24,000 bases of DNA from Gibbsiella quercinecans. Lineage in GTDB: Bacteria; Pseudomonadota; Gammaproteobacteria; Enterobacterales; Enterobacteriaceae. The position numbers were made by a program, and so were the translations under genes. Below are positions 5,739-17,027 of the stretch, one piece after another. The notes under the pieces are model-generated. The model saw only the letters and a program-made list of their open reading frames with translations. It searched no databases and had not been told where the DNA came from. Positions within the stretch are counted from its first letter, which is position 1; each line of letters begins with the position of its first letter. Where the stretch lies: contig NZ_CP014136.1 in the NCBI RefSeq assembly GCF_002291425.1, positions 4,888,925-4,912,924 on the forward strand. The letters are read 5' to 3'.

Positions 5739-6807
5739 ACTGCTGACGCAGGGCGTGAATGTGGTGAACCCGTCGGAACAGCATGTGAGCCGCCACGGCG
5801 GCGCCGGCCCTTCGGATCATCAGGCGGTCACTATCGACGGCGTAACGGTAATGGTGCCGATCTACACCCAAACCGCGCGCCATTCGGCATGGCAGGTGAA
5901 GCATGCCGAACAGGGCAAAACCACGTTATTGAAAAACCAGATCCCGGTGCGGGACATCACCTTTGCCCATAAGCCGCGGTTCTATGATTTGCAAACCGCA
6001 GACGGCATCCCGTACTCGCATATCGCCACGCTGCACGGCACCGATGTGCTGGCCACCACGGTGCTGCAAACCTGTATCCGTTATGAAAACCGGCGCAAAG
6101 CCTGCCAGTTTTGCGCCATCGGCCAATCGTTGGCTGCCGGGAGCACTATCGCCCACAAAACTCCGCAGCAGTTGGCCGAGGTGGCCAAAGCGGCGGTTGA
6201 GCTGGACGGCGTGAAGCACATGGTGATGACCACCGGCACGCCTTCAGGCAGCGATCGCGGCGCTCGCTTGCTGGTGGAAAGCGCGCAGGCGATCAAGGCT
6301 GCGGTGGATTTGCCGTTGCAGGGGCAGTGCGAACCCCCGGGCGACCCGGTGTGGTTCACCCGTATGAAAGAAGCGGGGATCGACGCGCTCGGCATGCACC
6401 TGGAAGCAGTAACGCCGGAGGTGCGCGCGCGCATTATGCCCGGCAAGGCCCAGGTGACCATCGAACAATATATGGTGGCCTTTGAGCAGGCGGTGGCCGT
6501 TTTTGGCCGCGGGCAGGTCAGCACCTATATTCTGGCCGGCATGGGCGACACGCCTGAAGCCATTCTGGCGATTTCGGAACGGCTGATCGCGCTGGGCGTT
6601 TACCCGTTCGTGGTGCCGTTTGTGCCGATCAGCGGCACGCCGCTGGAGCACCACCCGGCGCCCAGCACCGCGTTCATGGCGTCAATTCTCGAACCACTGG
6701 GGCGCATGCTGCGTGAAGGGCAACTGCGTTCAAGCGATATCAAGGCGGGGTGCGGCCGCTGCGGCGCCTGTTCATCCTTGTCCAGTTTTGAACAGGCGGT
6801 CGCCTGA
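5695..6807 (+). CDS. Radical SAM protein, MSMEG_0568 family (Nit1C)
   Basis: 371 aa from ATG 5695, preceded by AAGGAG. The ORF track's 5632 start lies inside the nitrilase gene. Cys cluster [14 protein letters not shown] followed by a glycine-rich [10 protein letters not shown], plus a C-terminal CGRCGAC. Overlaps the nitrilase 3' end by 44 nt. Confidence 0.8.
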
Positions 6808-9939: not shown

Positions 9940-11632
9940 AACACCGGAGCGGCATCGCTTCCGCGCGGCCTATTGGCGCCAGCAGGCCGAGGCGCTTGAC
10001 TGGCACACTCCGTACCAACAGGTGGCGGCCTATCAGGGCCACGGCCCGCGCAGCCGCTGGTTTGTGGGCGGCACCACCAACCTTTGCCACAACGCGCTGG
10101 ATCGCCACCTGGCGGCACGCGGCGACAAAACGGCGATTTTGCACTGCGATTATGCCGGGCAGATCACGGCGTTGAGCTACCGCGAACTGCACCAGGAAGT
10201 GCAGGCTATGGCGTGGATGCTGCACCAGCAAGGGGTGGGAAAAGGGGACCGGGTGTTGATTTGCCTGCCGATGATCCCGCAGGCGGCGATCGCGATGTTG
10301 GCCTGCTGCCGCCTGGGCGCGGTGCATGTGGTGGTTTATTCCGGGCTAACCCATGAACCGTTAGCCCAGCGTATCCGGGCCAGCCAGCCAAAATCCATCG
10401 TCACTTACGCCGGGCAGCGCGAACAGCCCTGCGCCGCACACCTGACGCAGGCGTTGTGCAGCAGCGGCTATCGTTGCCCGTTGATTGACGTGAGCTCCGC
10501 TCATTTTCAGCAGAAGCGCCAGCGAGCGCTAGGCCGCACAGTGCCGTGTTGTTGGCTGCCGGCGGACGCGCCCTCGCATCTGCTGTATACCTCGGGCACC
10601 ACCGGGGAGCCCAAAGGTGTGGTGCGCGACACCGGTGGCTATGCGGTGGCGCTGTTGGCTTCAATACGCAACATCTTTCAATTGGGCGAGGACGAGATCT
10701 TTTTCACCAGTGCCGACGTGGGCTGGGTGACCGGGCACAGTTACGGCGTGTATGCACCGCTGCTGGCGGGCCTGACCACCGTGATGGTGGAAGCCAGTGC
10801 GCTGAATAAGCCCGGCGCCCGCTGGTGGCAATGGGTGCAACAGTTGGGGATCACCCGGATGCTGACGGTACCCGGCGCGATGCGTATGGCCCGGCAACAG
10901 GGAGCGCCCCGCGCCGATCTGCGCAGCCTGCGTGCAATCTATCTTGCCGGCGAACCGTTGGATGAGCCTACGCGGCAGTGGGTGGCCGCCGTCACCGGCA
11001 TCAAGGTGGAAGATCACTACTGGCAAACGGAAACCGGCTGGCCGATCCTGACCGGAGTAGGCGGCCAACTGCGCCCGGTGTCGCCGCGTGACGTTGAGGT
11101 GCTGGACGATATCACCGGCGAACCCTGCGCCGACGGCGTGCCCGGCACATTGGTGATCCGCGATACGCTGGGGCCTGGCGGCATGAGCACGCTGTGGCAG
11201 GACGACGTTGAACATGATCAACGCTACTGGCGGCGAGAGCAGGGGCGATGGCTGTATTCCACTCACGATCGTGCAGTGCGCAACGCGCAGGGGGCGATCA
11301 CCGTGTTGGGTAGAATGGATGATGTGATCAATGTCGGCGGTAAGCGGCTATCGACCGTTGAGGTTGAGCGTGCGGTGTTGGCGATCGACGGCGTCTCGGA
11401 AGCGGCGGCGGTTGGCATCGCCCATCGCCTGCTGGGGCAAATGGTGAGCTTGTATCTGGTGACGTCGTTTGATGCGGGCCGCGATATGCACCAGTTGAAA
11501 CAGCGCGTGCGGCAACGGATCGTGGCCAGCTGCGGCCGGCATGCACTGCCCCGGCATATCTATTTTGTGGTTGCGTTGCCGCGCACCTTTTCCGGCAAAG
11601 TGGTGCGCAAGCAATTGGCGAGTCGGGGATGA
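9920..11632 (+). CDS. PrpE/Acs-like AMP-forming acyl-CoA synthetase
   Basis: About 570 aa from ATG 9920 (or 9926). The ORF-track extension to 9554 is an alternate frame of the FAD gene. AMP-binding motif LLYTSGTTGEPKG, GWVTGHSYGVYAPLLAG, YWQTETGW, C-terminal SGKVVRKQL. Collinear from memory with propionyl-CoA synthetase. Overlaps the FAD gene by 14-20 nt. Confidence 0.85.
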   Translation: MIMRCVETPERHRFRAAYWRQQAEALDWHTPYQQVAAYQGHGPRSRWFVGGTTNLCHNALDRHLAARGDKTAILHCDYAGQITALSYRELHQEVQAMAWMLHQQGVGKGDRVLICLPMIPQAAIAMLACCRLGAVHVVVYSGLTHEPLAQRIRASQPKSIVTYAGQREQPCAAHLTQALCSSGYRCPLIDVSSAHFQQKRQRALGRTVPCCWLPADAPSHLLYTSGTTGEPKGVVRDTGGYAVALLASIRNIFQLGEDEIFFTSADVGWVTGHSYGVYAPLLAGLTTVMVEASALNKPGARWWQWVQQLGITRMLTVPGAMRMARQQGAPRADLRSLRAIYLAGEPLDEPTRQWVAAVTGIKVEDHYWQTETGWPILTGVGGQLRPVSPRDVEVLDDITGEPCADGVPGTLVIRDTLGPGGMSTLWQDDVEHDQRYWRREQGRWLYSTHDRAVRNAQGAITVLGRMDDVINVGGKRLSTVEVERAVLAIDGVSEAAAVGIAHRLLGQMVSLYLVTSFDAGRDMHQLKQRVRQRIVASCGRHALPRHIYFVVALPRTFSGKVVRKQLASRG

Positions 11633-11696
11633 GGGAGGGCATTGGGGTGGCGAAATGGGGCAGGGAGGCCGGCTTTTGGAGGGAGGAAAGAGAGAG

Positions 11697-12017
11697 CTAA
11701 CTTTTCTGTTGCGTTTGGTATTTTGCCGACACCTTGCGAGAGGTATGTAATATCCGCAGGATATGCACTTCGTTTATCTTTCGTTTCAGCGCATAGATAA
11801 TGATGAACGGGAACTTTGTCAGCACCCGTTTTCTTCTTTCCCCTGACTTGCCTATATCGATCCCCGCTTCCGGCGTGGCTTCCAGCAGCGAAACCGCCGA
11901 CTCGAACTTGTCATCCGCTCCATTCGCCACATCCAGTCCGGCTTCTTTATACAGGTAACGATAGATACCTTCACGGTCTGCCAGCGCTCGTTTTTCCCAA
12001 CGCACACTGACTGTCAC
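11697..12017 (-). CDS. ParE/RelE family type II toxin
   Basis: 106 aa with the typical ParE/RelE layout (W...A..D...I..Y; FPFIIIYALKRKINEVHILRILHTSR). Its GTG start overlaps the antitoxin stop (GTGA). Confidence 0.75.
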   Translation of the reverse strand: MTVSVRWEKRALADREGIYRYLYKEAGLDVANGADDKFESAVSLLEATPEAGIDIGKSGERRKRVLTKFPFIIIYALKRKINEVHILRILHTSRKVSAKYQTQQKS

Positions 12018-12298
12018 AACTCACCTCGCGCCGCCCGCGCTTTCAGTTCATTCATCCGCTGACTGGCATCCTCATTGCTGATGAGCTCGCTTTCTCCCGC
12101 ATCATAACGAGAGAACGCTTCCTGTACTTGTGCCTCAAGCCATTCATCACCGACATTACGCTGATGCTGCCGCTCTTCTTCGGCCAGCTCTTCCGCCCGC
12201 TGACGCATCAACTCTGTCAGCGTGACCTGATGACGCTCGGCGGCCCGCATCGCCAATCGTTTGATTTCCTCATCGATTCTGAAGTGGATAGTGCTCAT
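12014..12298 (-). CDS. Type II antitoxin, ribbon-helix-helix type (ParD/RelB-like partner)
   Basis: 94 aa from ATG 12298, with AGGAGG 7 nt upstream. The ORF track's 12331 start is less likely. N-terminal STIHFRIDEEIKRLAMRAAERHQVTLTELMR looks like an RHH fold. Translationally coupled to the toxin. Confidence 0.7.
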   Translation of the reverse strand: MSTIHFRIDEEIKRLAMRAAERHQVTLTELMRQRAEELAEEERQHQRNVGDEWLEAQVQEAFSRYDAGESELISNEDASQRMNELKARAARGEL

Positions 12299-12449
12299 CG
12301 CTGCCTCCTGTGGTGTCATTCGTGTTGTCATTTTATGCTACTTTCCCTGTTTTTTCCTCTTCTTCGCTTTACGCTTAATCGGACGCGTTTTTCCATGCAC
12401 TTTTTGTGAGTGCCCGATGACGTCCGCGTGTAAACCTGTGTCGCCTCCA

Positions 12450-12583
12450 GCTTCTTATGGCCCAAGATGCTGGGTTGCATCGTCATCACCGTGCAGGATC
12501 TGCGGGAGTTGTGGCACAGTCTGGAAGGATTAAGCCGGGAAGTGTTCGATGAACGCGCCGCCGACTTACTTCAAAGCCGGTAA
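12450..12583 (+). pseudogene. Gene-tail remnant (copy A): reads ...MLGCIVITVQDLRELWHSLEGLSREVFDERAADLLQSR-stop. Homologous to 18140..18325.
   Basis: Nucleotide similarity to 18140-18290 read by eye. There is no start codon or long ORF. It sits directly 3' of a minus-strand low-GC cassette. Confidence 0.45.
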
Positions 12584-12742
12584 GATAAGTTCTGAGTACA
12601 TGGCTAATATTGATTTGGCAATTTATTTTTCTAAGGTTTTTATTTGGATTTTAATATATGAACTGATTTCTTTAGTTTGACTGAGGCAATAATGTTATTG
12701 GGCGACAATTTTTGATGTTACAAGCAAACTCCAGCATTAATG

Positions 12743-13852
12743 TTATCTTTTAGATGGATCAGAATGACCCCATAGTTGTTCAGCCAAACCAGAAATACGT
12801 TCTTCCTCAACCAGTTTATCCCGCCATACTTTCGGGATTCCAGAGTATCCATACAGCGCTCCTGCAATTTGTCCAGCCGTCGCTGCGACGCTATCGGCAT
12901 CGTCAGCCAGATTTGCAGCCAATAAAATAGCATCATGAAAATTCGATGTATTCCAAACAGCCCACAACGCTGCTTCAAGCGTGTCAATCACATATCCGCT
13001 AGAGCGAATATGTTCCCGGGTTTTATTTTTGTAAATTCCTGCATTAATTAGCGCTGTTCTGGCATTCAAAGGACAAGTTTTTGTTGCCAGGGCCTCAGAT
13101 TTGTTAGCGCCATTAAGTAAATGATGCAGTATCATTCCCAGCAGACGGCAGCAGTCCATGGACTCTATCGCTCCATGAGTGGCCTTACCTTGTAATTCAG
13201 ATTGTGCCAGGGTATGTAGTAAGGAATGACGATGAAAAATAGCAGCAGGAGCAAGACGTATTATTTCCGCGTTTCCAGCTGTGCGCGCATCATTATTGCC
13301 GAACCACTCATTCCCATATTGCAGGTAAGCCTCCAGCGCGTGACGAGTTGCATTGCCGATATCAAAACAAATGCCATTCGAACTGTTTGTACCATAGTGA
13401 TACCAGTTCACTAAACGATTTCTAAAATCGGTCACGTTTAGATCATGGCAGTGTACGTAAGTTTCGGCCAGGCAAAGCGCCATAGACGTATCATCAGTCC
13501 ATTCCCCCGCTTTAAGTTGGAATGGACCACCGCCAATCATATCATCGACGTATTTTTGGTCGCGAGGTAAAAACTCAAGCGTAGTGCCAACAGCATCACC
13601 TGCCGCAAGGCCAACAAGAGAACCTTTCGCTCTGTCCAGTAATGTTTCTTCACTCAGCTGCGGCCCGACGGAATGTAGCCAGTCTGGTAAATTGGACTGA
13701 TCGCTAAGCCAACGATTATAATCCAAGTGCAGACCACCTTCTTCTTGAAAAGCCTGATGATAACCATCAGGTATTACGTATGGATAATTCTCATGAATAA
13801 AAATTTTCAAAGAGGAAACATCTGTATGTAAATCTAACAAAATAACCTCCAA
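12743..13852 (-). CDS. ADP-ribosylglycohydrolase (ARH/DraG/Tri1-like) with about 75-aa N-terminal extension
   Basis: All metal-site motifs are intact: [46 protein letters not shown]. Low GC. The start is uncertain: TTG 13852, or TTG 13840 behind GGAGG. Confidence 0.85.
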
Positions 13853-13903
13853 CTAGATAGCGTGTATGGTGCGAATTATAACCAGACATACTAATAAATT
13901 TTA

Positions 13904-14188
13904 TTAGCATGGCATACGCATTAAAGCTGATTTTAGACGTTTCAGTAATGATTCGCTTTTTAGGCAGTCTTTCGGGCTTATATTATCAAGAACAGGGATT
14001 TTTTTATCAATCCAATCAAAACTTTCCTTTGGACCTAATAGGCCATAAATAACAACAGCAATATCTAAATGTCCTTCTAATTTCTTCGCAAGATTACGTG
14101 CAGTATCATCCAAATAATCCTGCGAATAAAAATCAGAGAAATCATTCCACTTTTCATCACCTGTATAATGATTTTCTAACGGAGGCAT
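13904..14188 (-). CDS. Small immunity/antitoxin-like protein, paralog A, with Xre/MbcA/ParS (DUF2384)-like C-terminus
   Basis: 94 aa. Aligns with 16746..17027 and 17501..17782 (WND, D-A-V-I-G, W...P.L....P.DCL....LL.RL...L). It follows an Rhs tail and toxin remnant. Confidence 0.6.
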   Translation of the reverse strand: MPPLENHYTGDEKWNDFSDFYSQDYLDDTARNLAKKLEGHLDIAVVIYGLLGPKESFDWIDKKIPVLDNISPKDCLKSESLLKRLKSALMRMPC

Positions 14189-14190
14189 AC

Positions 14191-14460
14191 CTAAATTCCT
14201 AAGAATGATATTAAGCGATATAACACATCGCTTCGAGCTACATATAAAATATTATTCCAATCATGTAATACATATAATTCTTGACCATTTACTGGATCGT
14301 AGTTTACCTGCTTTACATATTGATGGTAAAAATTTTCAGGGAGTTAACCCTATTGGATCGAACCAAGTAAGCGTATTCGGCGCGTACTGATAAAGATTAA
14401 TCCTGCTCGCCATATCTGATCAAATGCTACTGCCCGTCCGTTCATTCCTATTGACTATGG
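14191..14460 (-). pseudogene. Orphan Rhs core-tail remnant plus degraded toxin stub
   Basis: The minus strand reads ...INLYQYAPNTLTWFDPIGLTP-stop (compare the main Rhs GLNLYQYAPNPLTWIDPLGL). Another frame then continues about 50 codons to a TAG at 14191. Internal deletion and stops lie upstream. Confidence 0.6.
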
Positions 14461-14554
14461 CTGACGCGCATTCTACGTTAGATAGCGCTGTTTTTAAAAT
14501 CGCTCAGCCGGATCACTATAGGCGCGTGTTGACTACCGGCCCAATAGGGGCGAC

Positions 14555-14790
14555 ACCTCCATTGTTACGTTGTTCAATGCGGGCGCGATATGCGCCAGTT
14601 TAAACAGCGTATGCGCCAACGGATTGTAGCCAACTACGGTCTGCTCGCACTGCCGGGCATATATATTTTGTGGTTGCGTTGCCGCGCACTTTTTTCGGCA
14701 AATTGTTGCGTAAGCAATTGGCGCTTAGAGGATGAGGTACGGCATTGGGATGGCGAAGTGGGGCAGAGAGCTCTGCTTTGGGTTGTTGTT
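14555..14790 (+). pseudogene. Degenerate duplicate of the acyl-CoA synthetase 3' end and downstream spacer
   Basis: Aligns by eye to 11455..11696 at roughly 80% identity, for example tattttgtggttgcgttgccgcgcac in both copies. A 1-nt deletion and substitutions break the frame. ORF 14590..14850 is an artefact of this fragment. Confidence 0.7.
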
Positions 14791-15180
14791 CTAAACTTGC
14801 CCTATCTCAAGGGATTTATTCTTTTCCCCTCCCCAAGGATCATCCATTAAATACATCGGTATTATTGGCGTTTCAGAAGGAATGAATGTTAACTTATAAA
14901 ATATTTCATCCCCTTCACAAACCTCATAATAAAGAGAATATAATTTTTCTTCAAAGCTCAAATCTATTTTGAACTTCTCTGTGACCGAAGCAATCTCAAT
15001 GTTTTCATTGTTTCTGATATAAAACGGAACAACTATACAACGCTGAGTGTCTTTATCTATTTTAAATTCATTTGCTAAAGCCAAATGAATATTAGCGCCA
15101 AAAGTATCCTCTGGTAGGGGATCAAAAATCACATAGTCCTTATGAATAACAGCCCCTTGGTTAATGTTTTTTCTCCCCAC
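14791..15180 (-). CDS. Putative immunity protein of the orphan Rhs (possibly ComJ-like nuclease-inhibitor fold)
   Basis: 129-aa low-GC ORF immediately 3' of the orphan Rhs C-terminal domain. Start is GTG at 15180, or GTG at 15132 overlapping the toxin stop as GTGA. Weak pattern resemblance to ComJ (VVPFYIRNNENIEIASV...FKIDL). Confidence 0.5.
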   Translation of the reverse strand: MGRKNINQGAVIHKDYVIFDPLPEDTFGANIHLALANEFKIDKDTQRCIVVPFYIRNNENIEIASVTEKFKIDLSFEEKLYSLYYEVCEGDEIFYKLTFIPSETPIIPMYLMDDPWGGEKNKSLEIGQV

Positions 15181-16240
15181 TGACTTAATTCCGCATCAAA
15201 TGCCCTGGAACGAACTTGAATTTGGCTGTGAGATATAAGTAAATCGACGGTGTAATTATGTTTCATTTCATTGATAGCCTTTTCTCCAGTTATTTTGTCT
15301 CTGAACAGCTTATAATGCAGTCCGATTTCCCAGTCAAGGTATGTCCTCTGCTAACGTAGATTTTGCGGGGGCTCTTGCTGCGGGCTTCGCTCCAGGCGGA
15401 AAACTGCCCTTGCCACACCAGGTTGCCGTGCTCGTCGGTCATGCGTGTCGGGAGGCGTTCAGCTCGGTATGGTACCAGTAGACTTCGCTGCTTTCGCCGA
15501 TGCTGTCGACGCGCGCCAGCGGTTCCCAACTGTTCTCTTGATAAAGGTAACGCGTAGCCTGTTCAGGGTGCAGGCTGCTTTGTTCACCTACCATCCGCAG
15601 GCCGTTCCAGTGGAACGTGATGGTTTCCGGTTCGCCGTGGTGCGGGTAGAGGATTTTTTGGCTGCGGCAGCCCAGGGCATCGTAGCAGTATTCCGCCCGT
15701 TGATAATGCGGGTTGCCGGTAAAAATCACGCTGGCCAGCCGGTGTTCCGCGTCATAGCTGAAACGTTGTTCCTCACCCTGTGGGCCGTTGTGGCGCCAGT
15801 TCAGGCGGCCAAAGCCCCAGCGTGTGCCGCCCAGGCGTTGCAGCAGGTTGTGCCAGACCGCGGCCGAATACTGTGGGTGAGCTGCCCGCGTGCATCGTAG
15901 CCGAAGCGGCTTTGCAGGCACTGCGGCCCCGGTTGGCCGATACCGTCTTCGGTGAACATCTGTTGCACCTAAGCGCATTCTAAGCCAGCCGTGTGTGTAG
16001 CTGTGCCGTGAGTTCGCCTCCGGCGGCCAACGGATATTCGATGCTCTGTGTGAGTGCTCCAACCTATCATAGCCATACTGCGTGCGGTGCCTGGCATAGT
16101 CGGTTTGCGCCAGCAGGCGATCGCCGTTGTCATAATCGAACTGCCAGCGATTGTGGTTGGGGTTGAGCAGGGCGGTCATGCGGCCGAAGCGATCGTACTG
16201 ATAGCGGGTTTGCCGGCTCGCCGGATCGGTTTCGCTCACT
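15129..16240 (-). pseudogene. Orphan rhs fragment (5'-truncated, internally deleted core) with its own short C-terminal domain
   Basis: 15297-16240 is homologous to the main rhs at 19149-20693, at about 90% or better by eye. It carries deletions of about 0.5 kb, about 60 bp, 18 bp and 9 bp plus frame breaks, and the ORF track splits it into 15439..16272 and 15290..15529. After ...HYKLFR it diverges into a 56-codon low-GC tail (DKITGEKAINEMKHNY...). Confidence 0.8.
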
Positions 16241-16294
16241 ATATAAATAGTCAAAGTATACCTAAATCTCATATTACAGACTCAATATAACAAA

Positions 16295-16657
16295 TTAACT
16301 ATTCTGGCCAAAAATACCTATAAGGTAAGATATATATCTTGCAGGTTGAATCTCTGAAAATGTAAAAAATATTAAAGTATTATGCTTATGAAGAGAGCAT
16401 TTACTTTCAAAAAAACATATTGCATCCCCTTTGTAATTATAACGTCCAGAATTCATTGCATTTTCTTTTACGCCTTTAATATGACTTGCAATCTCTTTTT
16501 TAAACAACTCATTCTCTAGATCAAATCGTTTAGAGTTGAAAACCGTAAAAACTACCTGACTGCCACAATACGGGCAATTAATAAAGTTTTTGTTATGAAT
16601 GAAATTATTTTCAAAACCATCATGCAATAATATAGGATTTTTTATTGAATTCTTCAT
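16295..16657 (-). CDS. Hypothetical small protein with CxxC motif (possible orphan immunity protein)
   Basis: 120-aa very low-GC ORF (CPYCGSQ..., ...CSLHKH) between immunity paralog B and the truncated orphan rhs. No family recognised. Confidence 0.45.
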   Translation of the reverse strand: MKNSIKNPILLHDGFENNFIHNKNFINCPYCGSQVVFTVFNSKRFDLENELFKKEIASHIKGVKENAMNSGRYNYKGDAICFFESKCSLHKHNTLIFFTFSEIQPARYISYLIGIFGQNS

Positions 16658-16745
16658 TGTGTTAAAATAAACCTCGCCTTAAAAATAAATTAATTTTTGA
16701 TTAATCGACCTATTGGTTATACAATCAAGGTTCACATGCAATGTT

Positions 16746-17027
16746 TTAGCATGGTAACTCTATTAAATATTGCCGTAATCGTTTAATTAAATCAGGGTCA
16801 TTTAGGCAATCTAAAGGGCGGATATTTTCAAGCATTTTTACTTTTCTCTCCATCCATTCAATCCCTCCTTTTAACCCTATTTTCCCATTTATAACAATAG
16901 CCATGTCGCGTGCACCGTTCATTTTTTCTGTTAAAATATCCACATCCGCATTGGAATATACCTCATCAAAGGATTTAACAAGATCATTCCAAGCGTTATC
17001 ACCAAGATAATCCAATTCTAACCCCAT
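16746..17027 (-). CDS. Small immunity/antitoxin-like protein, paralog B, with DUF2384-like C-terminus
   Basis: 93 aa ending in WMERKVKMLENIRPLDCLNDPDLIKRLRQYLIELPC. Aligns with paralogs A and C. Confidence 0.6.
   Translation of the reverse strand: MGLELDYLGDNAWNDLVKSFDEVYSNADVDILTEKMNGARDMAIVINGKIGLKGGIEWMERKVKMLENIRPLDCLNDPDLIKRLRQYLIELPC

Follow-up and report, generated by a model that had tools for sequence, protein, structure and literature searches.

Two orphan immunity genes at the end of an Rhs locus

We analyzed a stretch of 24,000 nucleotides (nt) from Gibbsiella quercinecans (contig NZ_CP014136.1, positions 4,888,925 to 4,912,924), in the following called the window, in which an Rhs locus reaches on the minus strand from 22352 to about 12700. 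At the distal end of this locus a gene for a protein of 94 amino acids (aa; 13904–14188, minus strand) is followed by a gene for an ADP-ribosylglycohydrolase (ARH; 12743–13852, minus strand, 369 aa). A sequence-only reading of this DNA had described an Rhs tail, a toxin stub and these two genes on the minus strand, and all of them are present. It had further proposed that the two proteins constitute a two-protein immunity against one toxin of the ADP-ribosyltransferase (ART) fold and that this pairing is a new system, a proposal which our analysis does not support. The best overall explanation, to which we assign a probability of about 85%, is an ordinary orphan-immunity array, in which the two genes are directed against two toxin classes and are neighbors through recombination, being separate cassettes and not a new two-protein system. 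The window would comprise the distal end of a type VI secretion system (T6SS) polymorphic-toxin locus, where spent toxin/immunity cassettes accumulate.

The two cassettes can be delimited by comparison with other genomes. Homology to the RES-immunity module of Pluralibacter gergoviae covers the window positions 14214–13900 (positions 5975–6289 of L004, 88.6% identical) and stops at 13900. The tri1 cassette which is common to the window and Brenneria sp. L3-3Z (L001, 94% identical) begins at 13898 and extends to 12717. The cassette junction at 13898–13900 is located about 3–6 nt past the stop codon of the 94-aa gene and, because the module boundaries meet there, the adjacency of the two genes is the recombination junction of two independent cassettes, each mobile on its own. 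In the Brenneria array the tri1 cassette is found elsewhere, after insertion sequence (IS) debris and a 71-aa fragment and before an Rhs-tail/TNT-toxin fragment, and not directly behind a paralog of the 94-aa gene.

In addition the two genes were not met together at the loci examined outside the lineage of the window. An ARH gene is absent from all 26 loci recovered through the 94-aa family, 15 of which reach 1.2 kb or more downstream, and no homolog of the 94-aa protein is present within 5 kb of any Tri1 locus examined outside the lineage. The same adjacency was found elsewhere in L003 alone, a 98%-identical sibling assembly which is collinear with the window over positions 15421–12727.

Both genes are intact and under purifying selection, with a ratio of nonsynonymous to synonymous substitution rates (dN/dS) of 0.23 for tri1 in comparison with Brenneria L001 and of 0.09 for the 94-aa gene in comparison with P. 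gergoviae. These values are consistent with retention as orphan immunity. The idea of orphan immunity behind a decayed toxin was thus right, the toxin gene upstream being destroyed, and the description of the toxin stub is refined below.

An immunity family for Rhs toxins with a RES domain

The first cassette (14413–13900) would be the leftover of an orphan Rhs C-terminal toxin module, consisting of an Rhs tail, a gutted RES toxin and the intact 94-aa immunity gene. The Rhs tail (14345–14413, minus strand, about 70 nt) has no Rhs core upstream; its translation reads MASRINLYQYAPNTLTWFDPIGL (…NLYQYAPNTLTWFDPIGL), and a stop codon follows two codons on. Blastn and tblastn show that this tail (14413–14345) is homologous to Rhs core ends in many loci, and positions 14346–14400 (55 nt) share 87% identity with the main Rhs core of the window at its end (19036–19090). 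The cassette accordingly starts with the Rhs core-end fragment by which orphan modules are recognized (PxxxxDPxGL region, peptide NLYQYAPNTLTWFDPIGL).

Between this tail and the 94-aa gene there is a dead toxin stub (14191–14344, minus strand). About 125 nt directly after the tail have a match in the sibling contig L003 only, and homology to the P. gergoviae PAAR-Rhs-RES gene begins no earlier than 14214. The last 24 nt or so before the start codon of the 94-aa gene show homology to an intact RES toxin gene, namely to its 3′ end with the last eight codons (…RLISFLGI and the stop codon). A 49-aa reading of the stub had no Pfam match. Judged from these last codons the stub, formerly described just as a degraded toxin, is the remnant of a RES toxin specifically.

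The 94-aa protein is a single-domain, all-helical protein resembling DUF2384/Xre_MbcA_ParS_C, and we annotate it as a putative immunity protein of Rhs-RES toxins. Its match to the Pfam family Xre_MbcA_ParS_C (PF09722) comprises residues 57–92 and has an E-value of 0.13 and a score of 12.7 bits, the cut-off being 24.5. The Xre/MbcA/ParS-like C-terminus that had been claimed for this protein is therefore below the Pfam threshold in the window protein, but is retrieved at the level of the family and of the fold. PF09722 matches 17 of 22 family members at E ≤ 1 (best E-value 5.5e-6), the distant member P0173 carries a precomputed match, and the two paralogs in the window at 17027–16746 and 17803–17501 match weakly as well (E-values of 0.058 and 0.063, respectively). 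At the same threshold none of the 22 members has a match to a helix–turn–helix (HTH) family or to Imm51 in Pfam.

The AlphaFold2 (AF2) model of the 94-aa protein has a predicted local distance difference test score (pLDDT) of 93.9. When this model was compared with the PDB by Foldseek, the nine best matches were all antitoxins of RES systems, with MbcA (6fkg_C), Xre of Pseudomonas putida (9r35 and 6gw6_B), VPA0769 (8gug) and ParS (6d0h) among them. The probabilities are up to 0.99 and the template modeling (TM) scores are about 0.5 over 52–60 columns, with weak E-values of 0.3–2.4, and the structural alignments are confined to the C-terminal domain. Sequence searches of the PDB with the 94-aa protein and with the 22-member family profile gave nothing relevant, so that the fold search alone matched. 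On the basis of the family matches and the predicted fold we regard the relation to PF09722 as real.

A search with the family profile yielded 53 protein clusters from Gibbsiella, Brenneria, Pluralibacter, Pantoea, Erwinia, Kosakonia, Pseudomonas and Burkholderia, with Pseudomonas members of 93 aa among the matches. For the metagenome scan for loci of this family a subset alignment of eight sequences was used, the alignment of 22 sequences being too divergent. In four P. gergoviae genomes an 89%-identical 94-aa gene begins 3 nt after the gene of an intact PAAR-DUF6531-RHS-RES protein of 1472 aa. A RES toxin domain abuts the family gene in 18 of the 26 loci, and the remaining loci are orphans in Rhs arrays or distant relatives. 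Going by this gene order, the 94-aa protein has a PAAR-Rhs-RES protein as its cognate toxin.

The window contains three paralogs of this family, which are 38–52% identical and each stand behind a RES remnant. In orphan module 1 (17501–18113, minus strand) the RES remnant at 18113–17787 is, according to tblastn, 80% identical to the intact C-terminal RES toxin of P. gergoviae but has an in-frame stop, and a 67-aa piece of it matches Pfam RES with an E-value of 5.7e-5. The paralogous immunity gene of this module (17501–17803) is an open reading frame (ORF) of 100 aa, the product of which probably has 93 aa and starts from an internal ATG. Orphan module 2 (16746–17400, minus strand) comprises an Rhs tail with stops, a C-terminal RES remnant at about 17100–17032, of which only …APSARNPTGTNLISFRGF and the stop codon survive, and a 93-aa immunity gene at 17027–16746. 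The third remnant is that in front of the 94-aa gene, where the last eight codons alone are left (14214–14191).

The 94-aa protein would accordingly be a helical protein that stands alone and is related to the toxin-binding domain of MbcA, Xre and ParS. It is likely that this domain of RES antitoxins has been co-opted, without the HTH, as the immunity of T6SS Rhs-RES effectors. The protein would neutralize incoming NAD+-consuming Rhs-RES toxins by one-to-one binding, in the way in which MbcA, Xre and ParS block their RES partners. That an HTH-less DUF2384-type domain, and not Imm51, serves as Rhs-RES immunity is the single point that is mildly new.

The hydrolase is an orphan Tri1

The second cassette (13898–12717) would consist of a toxin-less tri1 gene. 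The encoded hydrolase scores 576.2 bits against the Tri1 equivalog model of NCBIfam (NF041672, cut-off 490), residues 6–363 being aligned with positions 2–358 of the 361 model positions, and 143 bits against the DraG equivalog (cut-off 337). It matches the Tri1 structures of Serratia proteamaculans (6DRE/6DRH; 6dre_A) over residues 50–361 with an E-value of 1e-134 and the Pfam family ADP_ribosyl_GH (PF03747) over residues 77–341 with an E-value of 1.3e-63. By these matches the hydrolase is Tri1 at the equivalog level.

Several details of the sequence-only reading were borne out here. The ADP_ribosyl_GH search was clearly positive, and with the Tri1 equivalog above and the DraG equivalog below the cut-off the protein is very unlikely to be a housekeeping enzyme. 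The N-terminal extension of about 75 aa is confirmed because the PF03747 match spans residues 77–341, and it belongs to the Tri1 family model because the NF041672 match covers residues 6–363. The metal-binding motifs are intact and form invariant columns in an alignment of the hydrolase with 13 homologs, namely GDAVGT (D86), TDDT (D120, D121 and T122) and DDADS (D318, D320 and S321). In the same alignment the extension keeps Y23 and P28 and is otherwise divergent. The first 45 residues or so are not aligned to 6DRE by phmmer, though the length of the extension fits.

The ORF of 369 aa and the gap of 51 nt to the 94-aa gene are as described, but the true start of tri1 is probably a second TTG at 13840, giving a protein of 365 aa and a gap of 63 nt instead. 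A GGAGG sequence precedes this codon by 7 nt, and P0001, a database protein with 94% identity, has its start at the equivalent site. The GC content of the tri1 cassette is 0.41–0.45 compared to about 0.62 in the flanking genes.

Tri1 is canonically paired with an R-S-E ART toxin, for example Tre1, and not with a RES toxin. A tblastn search with the P. putida toxin gave no Tre1-like sequence in the window (best E-value 0.13), and for this reason the tri1 gene is counted as an orphan. The missing Tre1 neighbor should be no bar to membership in the Tri1 family, since many family members appear to be orphans. It has been shown that helix 27–33 of the extension inserts into the Tre1 active site and that the DraG-like domain strips ADP-ribose from arginine; this enzymatic activity also reaches a non-cognate toxin, as seen from the partial rescue of TreX intoxication (PMC11606950, PMC8120803). 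Moreover "Imm-ARG" associates strictly with ARTs of the R-S-E clade (Zhang et al. 2012, PMC3482391). If the window protein behaves like its family, its extension would plug the active site of a matching Tre1-type toxin, and its hydrolase domain would reverse the arginine ADP-ribosylation of targets such as FtsZ by any R-S-E ART.

We inspected the context of tri1 genes in Affinibrenneria, S. quinivorans, Mangrovibacter, E. amylovora, Pantoea agglomerans (two loci) and P. putida. The gene is stand-alone in Affinibrenneria, follows Rhs immunity arrays in S. quinivorans and Mangrovibacter, and is found in P. agglomerans in arrays of small ORFs with two tri1 copies. P. putida shows the canonical pair, with a DUF6861+ART toxin gene that overlaps the start of tri1 by 4 nt. 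Upstream of tri1 in S. quinivorans, Mangrovibacter, E. amylovora and Brenneria L001 the ORFs have no ART match, and with the P. putida ART toxin as query nothing was found either in the window or in the remaining Tri1 loci. From these gene contexts orphan tri1 genes seem to be common. They have been described in P. agglomerans (bioRxiv 10.1101/2023.03.17.533219), and both orphan tri1 genes and the broad protection conferred by them are already published.

In E. amylovora the Tri1 homolog is located 179 nt downstream of a gene (L033/L034, 17-4822) for a protein of 1601 aa, which has no confident Pfam domain and in its C-terminal part a weak Tiki/ChaN-like match (E-value 0.0013). This protein is a possible uncharacterised toxin partner for this N-terminal class of Tri1.

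Alternative explanations for the neighborhood of the two genes

Several points weigh against the separation of the two genes into independent cassettes. The 94-aa gene and tri1 are on the same strand, 51–63 nt apart, their adjacency is kept in L003, and they are probably co-transcribed. There is no terminator-like site between them, although the scan of positions 12500–15300 was no better than with shuffled sequences and is uninformative on operon structure. RES toxins are ART-like in their fold, and one of the family, ParT, is a genuine ADP-ribosyltransferase; a functional link between the 94-aa protein and Tri1 is conceivable as far as the sequence alone can tell. In addition the 94-aa protein scores under the PF09722 threshold (12.7 vs 24.5 bits), and the sample of Tri1 contexts is small with seven distinct loci outside the lineage of the window.

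One could therefore imagine that the 94-aa binder and the hydrolase form two layers of immunity against one ART-fold (RES) toxin, the former blocking the toxin and the latter reversing the modification. This is very unlikely, since ARH is absent from all 26 RES/immunity loci, the 94-aa gene is absent from the Tri1 loci examined outside the lineage, a cassette junction lies at 13898–13900 between the two genes, and in Brenneria L001 no 94-aa paralog directly precedes the tri1 cassette. In its favor, the gene pair is conserved in L003 and no terminator-like site separates the genes. The family model that includes the Tri1 extension was built on Tre1 partners, which speaks against it. Moreover, characterised RES toxins, MbcT among them, for the most part consume NAD+ (reportedly Skjerning 2019) and thereby produce no arginine adduct that Tri1 could remove, which makes a shared target of the two proteins doubtful. 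In a version in which the adjacency is non-accidental, the RES-type Rhs toxin would be an ADP-ribosyltransferase like ParT, which ADP-ribosylates Prs (PMC8120803), and the lineage would possess a co-transcribed two-layer orphan defence; we give this version equally little credence.

It is still less probable that tri1 has been kept as back-up immunity for the resident main Rhs toxin, which is still intact. The C-terminal domain of this toxin belongs to the same array and has an NAD-using, ART-like fold according to Foldseek (Tne2, Tse6). Its best structural match is, however, the NADase Tne2 and not an R-S-E transferase, a result by which we rejected the main toxin as an R-S-E ART countered by Tri1, and NAD+ hydrolysis leaves nothing for an ADP-ribosylarginine hydrolase. 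The main toxin has its own 68-aa gene directly downstream, and the tri1 cassette occurs with other main toxins, for example LHH in Mangrovibacter. The least probable explanation is that the hydrolase is a DraG-like regulatory housekeeping enzyme with no link to toxins. Several close homologs do stand alone among metabolic genes (Affinibrenneria, E. amylovora), but the scores against the DraG and Tri1 equivalogs (143 and 576 bits, cut-offs of 337 and 490), the low-GC cassette inside an Rhs array and the Tri1-type N-terminal extension argue against it. We therefore prefer the orphan-immunity array, in which the two genes would guard against two different toxin classes and recombination in the array would have made them neighbors.

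Organization of the Rhs array

The main rhs gene (18588–22352, minus strand) encodes a protein of 1254 aa without PAAR and with the Pfam domains RHS_repeat, DUF6531 and RHS. Directly 3′ of it there is the presumed immunity gene of the main toxin (18376–18582, minus strand, 68 aa). After these two genes the array tail consists of degraded cassettes with a GC content of 0.32–0.46 compared to about 0.62 in the flanks, and the 94-aa gene and tri1 are its last two intact genes.

The C-terminal toxin of the main Rhs protein (18588–19031, minus strand, 147 aa) has no sequence match in Pfam or the PDB. Its AF2 model (pLDDT 91.6) has Tne2 (6b12_A) as best Foldseek match with a probability of 1.00 and TM scores of 0.53/0.64, and Tse6 comes next. 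There are 106 relatives in the database, mostly Rhs C-terminal fragments. Going by the modeled fold, the main toxin looks like a member of an unannotated Tne2-like NAD(P)+ glycohydrolase family.

Modules of NAD+-using toxins dominate the array (12743–19031, minus strand), which contains the Tne2-like toxin of the main rhs gene, RES remnants at three places, each with its immunity gene, a TNT immunity gene and Tri1. The 120-aa gene at 16657–16295 is assigned as the immunity gene of a TNT-type NADase, judged from Brenneria L001, where its homolog sits after a TNT fragment (Pfam E-value 7.5e-12). The sole exception to the NAD+ theme is a ComJ-like nuclease-inhibitor gene at 15180–14791 (PF11033, E-value 7.6e-11).

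The ORF of the main rhs gene has a TTG start and lacks PAAR, and just upstream there is an IS3-type transposase ORF (22443–22970, plus strand, HTH_Tnp_1 with an E-value of 2.4e-16). An IS insertion may have removed the N-terminus encoded by this ORF, in which case the whole locus could be delivery-inactive. A second Rhs core fragment at 15290–16272 (minus strand) is heavily frameshifted, and pieces of it are 94–96% identical to the main rhs gene (repeats D1, D2, D4 and D9). At the sequence level this fragment speaks for an internal duplication or for a second rhs gene that existed formerly.

Of the AMP-binding gene acs (acyl-CoA synthetase-like) the 3′ end is present as a copy in the array, positions 14653–14782 being 85% identical to 11550–11679 over 130 nt; the wider extent of the copy is about 14564–14795. 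The two acs 3′ ends bracket a block of Rhs tail, stub, 94-aa gene, tri1 and parDE, and because of this bracketing the repeats suggest that the block joined the distal edge of the array by recombination with foreign DNA. A further direct repeat of 76 nt, 80% identical, stands at two cassette junctions, 3′ of tri1 (12488–12563) and 3′ of the immunity gene of the main toxin (18188–18263). One of its reading frames resembles the C-terminus of a recombinase (…LGHKKLEATQVYT…), but as a tyrosine-recombinase fragment it was rejected, no Pfam family being matched. Between tri1 and the acyl-CoA synthetase-like gene there is a ParD-like/ParE toxin–antitoxin pair (11697–12331, minus strand) with a ParE_toxin match (E-value 5.1e-13) and a RelB/DUF6290-like antitoxin partner. 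In L003 an uncharacterised ORF of 200 aa, which is also present in Brenneria L001, takes the place of the parDE segment.

Meaning of the locus and comparison with known systems

The locus does not reveal a new defence architecture. Its value lies in the annotation, with the hydrolase gene becoming an orphan tri1 and the three genes of about 93 aa becoming Rhs-RES immunity genes, and in a textbook case of an array in which toxins decay while immunity genes are retained. The locus also gives one more data point for the published idea that enzymatic immunity such as Tri1 is kept as broadly protective orphan defence, and a small evolutionary link between antitoxins of type II toxin–antitoxin (TA) systems and T6SS immunity proteins.

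The Tre1–Tri1 pair of S. proteamaculans was reportedly described by Ting and coworkers in Cell in 2018, with the structures 6DRE and 6DRH. The hydrolase of the window belongs to the same equivalog family, is roughly 70% identical over the hydrolase domain and likewise appears to combine an N-terminal extension of about 70 aa with a DraG-like ARH domain having all catalytic residues. Unlike in S. proteamaculans there is no Tre1-type toxin in the window, and tri1 is part of an Rhs orphan array and not of a vgrG-eag-tre1-tri1 operon. Furthermore, the first 45 residues or so of the extension diverge from the S. proteamaculans protein, Y23 and P28 alone being invariant, so that any toxin bound by the Tri1 of the window would be a different variant.

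With the RES–Xre, MbcT–MbcA and ParT–ParS systems the 94-aa protein shares the predicted fold of the antitoxin toxin-binding domain and the position of the family gene directly after the RES toxin gene. It differs from them in that the RES toxin forms the C-terminal domain of a T6SS effector, the PAAR-Rhs protein of 1472 aa, and is not a small cytoplasmic toxin, and in that the toxin gene comes first. In addition the N-terminal half of the 94-aa protein has no match to an HTH family, and the window protein itself is below the PF09722 threshold.

A closer parallel is the PAAR-Rhs-RES effector Tfe2 of P. fluorescens F113 with the 92-aa putative immunity protein Tfi2 predicted directly downstream (PMC7970981); the 94-aa family gene follows a PAAR-Rhs-RES gene in the same architecture, with an immunity protein of similar size. 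In a survey of polymorphic toxin systems Imm51 is listed for Tox-RES and DUF2384 for TA systems only (Zhang et al. 2012, PMC3482391), whereas the Rhs-RES immunity protein considered here is DUF2384-like and has no Imm51 match. Finally, the locus has in common with orphan Rhs-CT (C-terminal toxin)/immunity arrays that short cassettes primed by an Rhs tail stand 3′ of the main rhs gene, that the toxins have decayed and the immunity genes are kept, and that tri1 is present without tre1. We see no essential difference to these arrays, of which the locus is one more instance.

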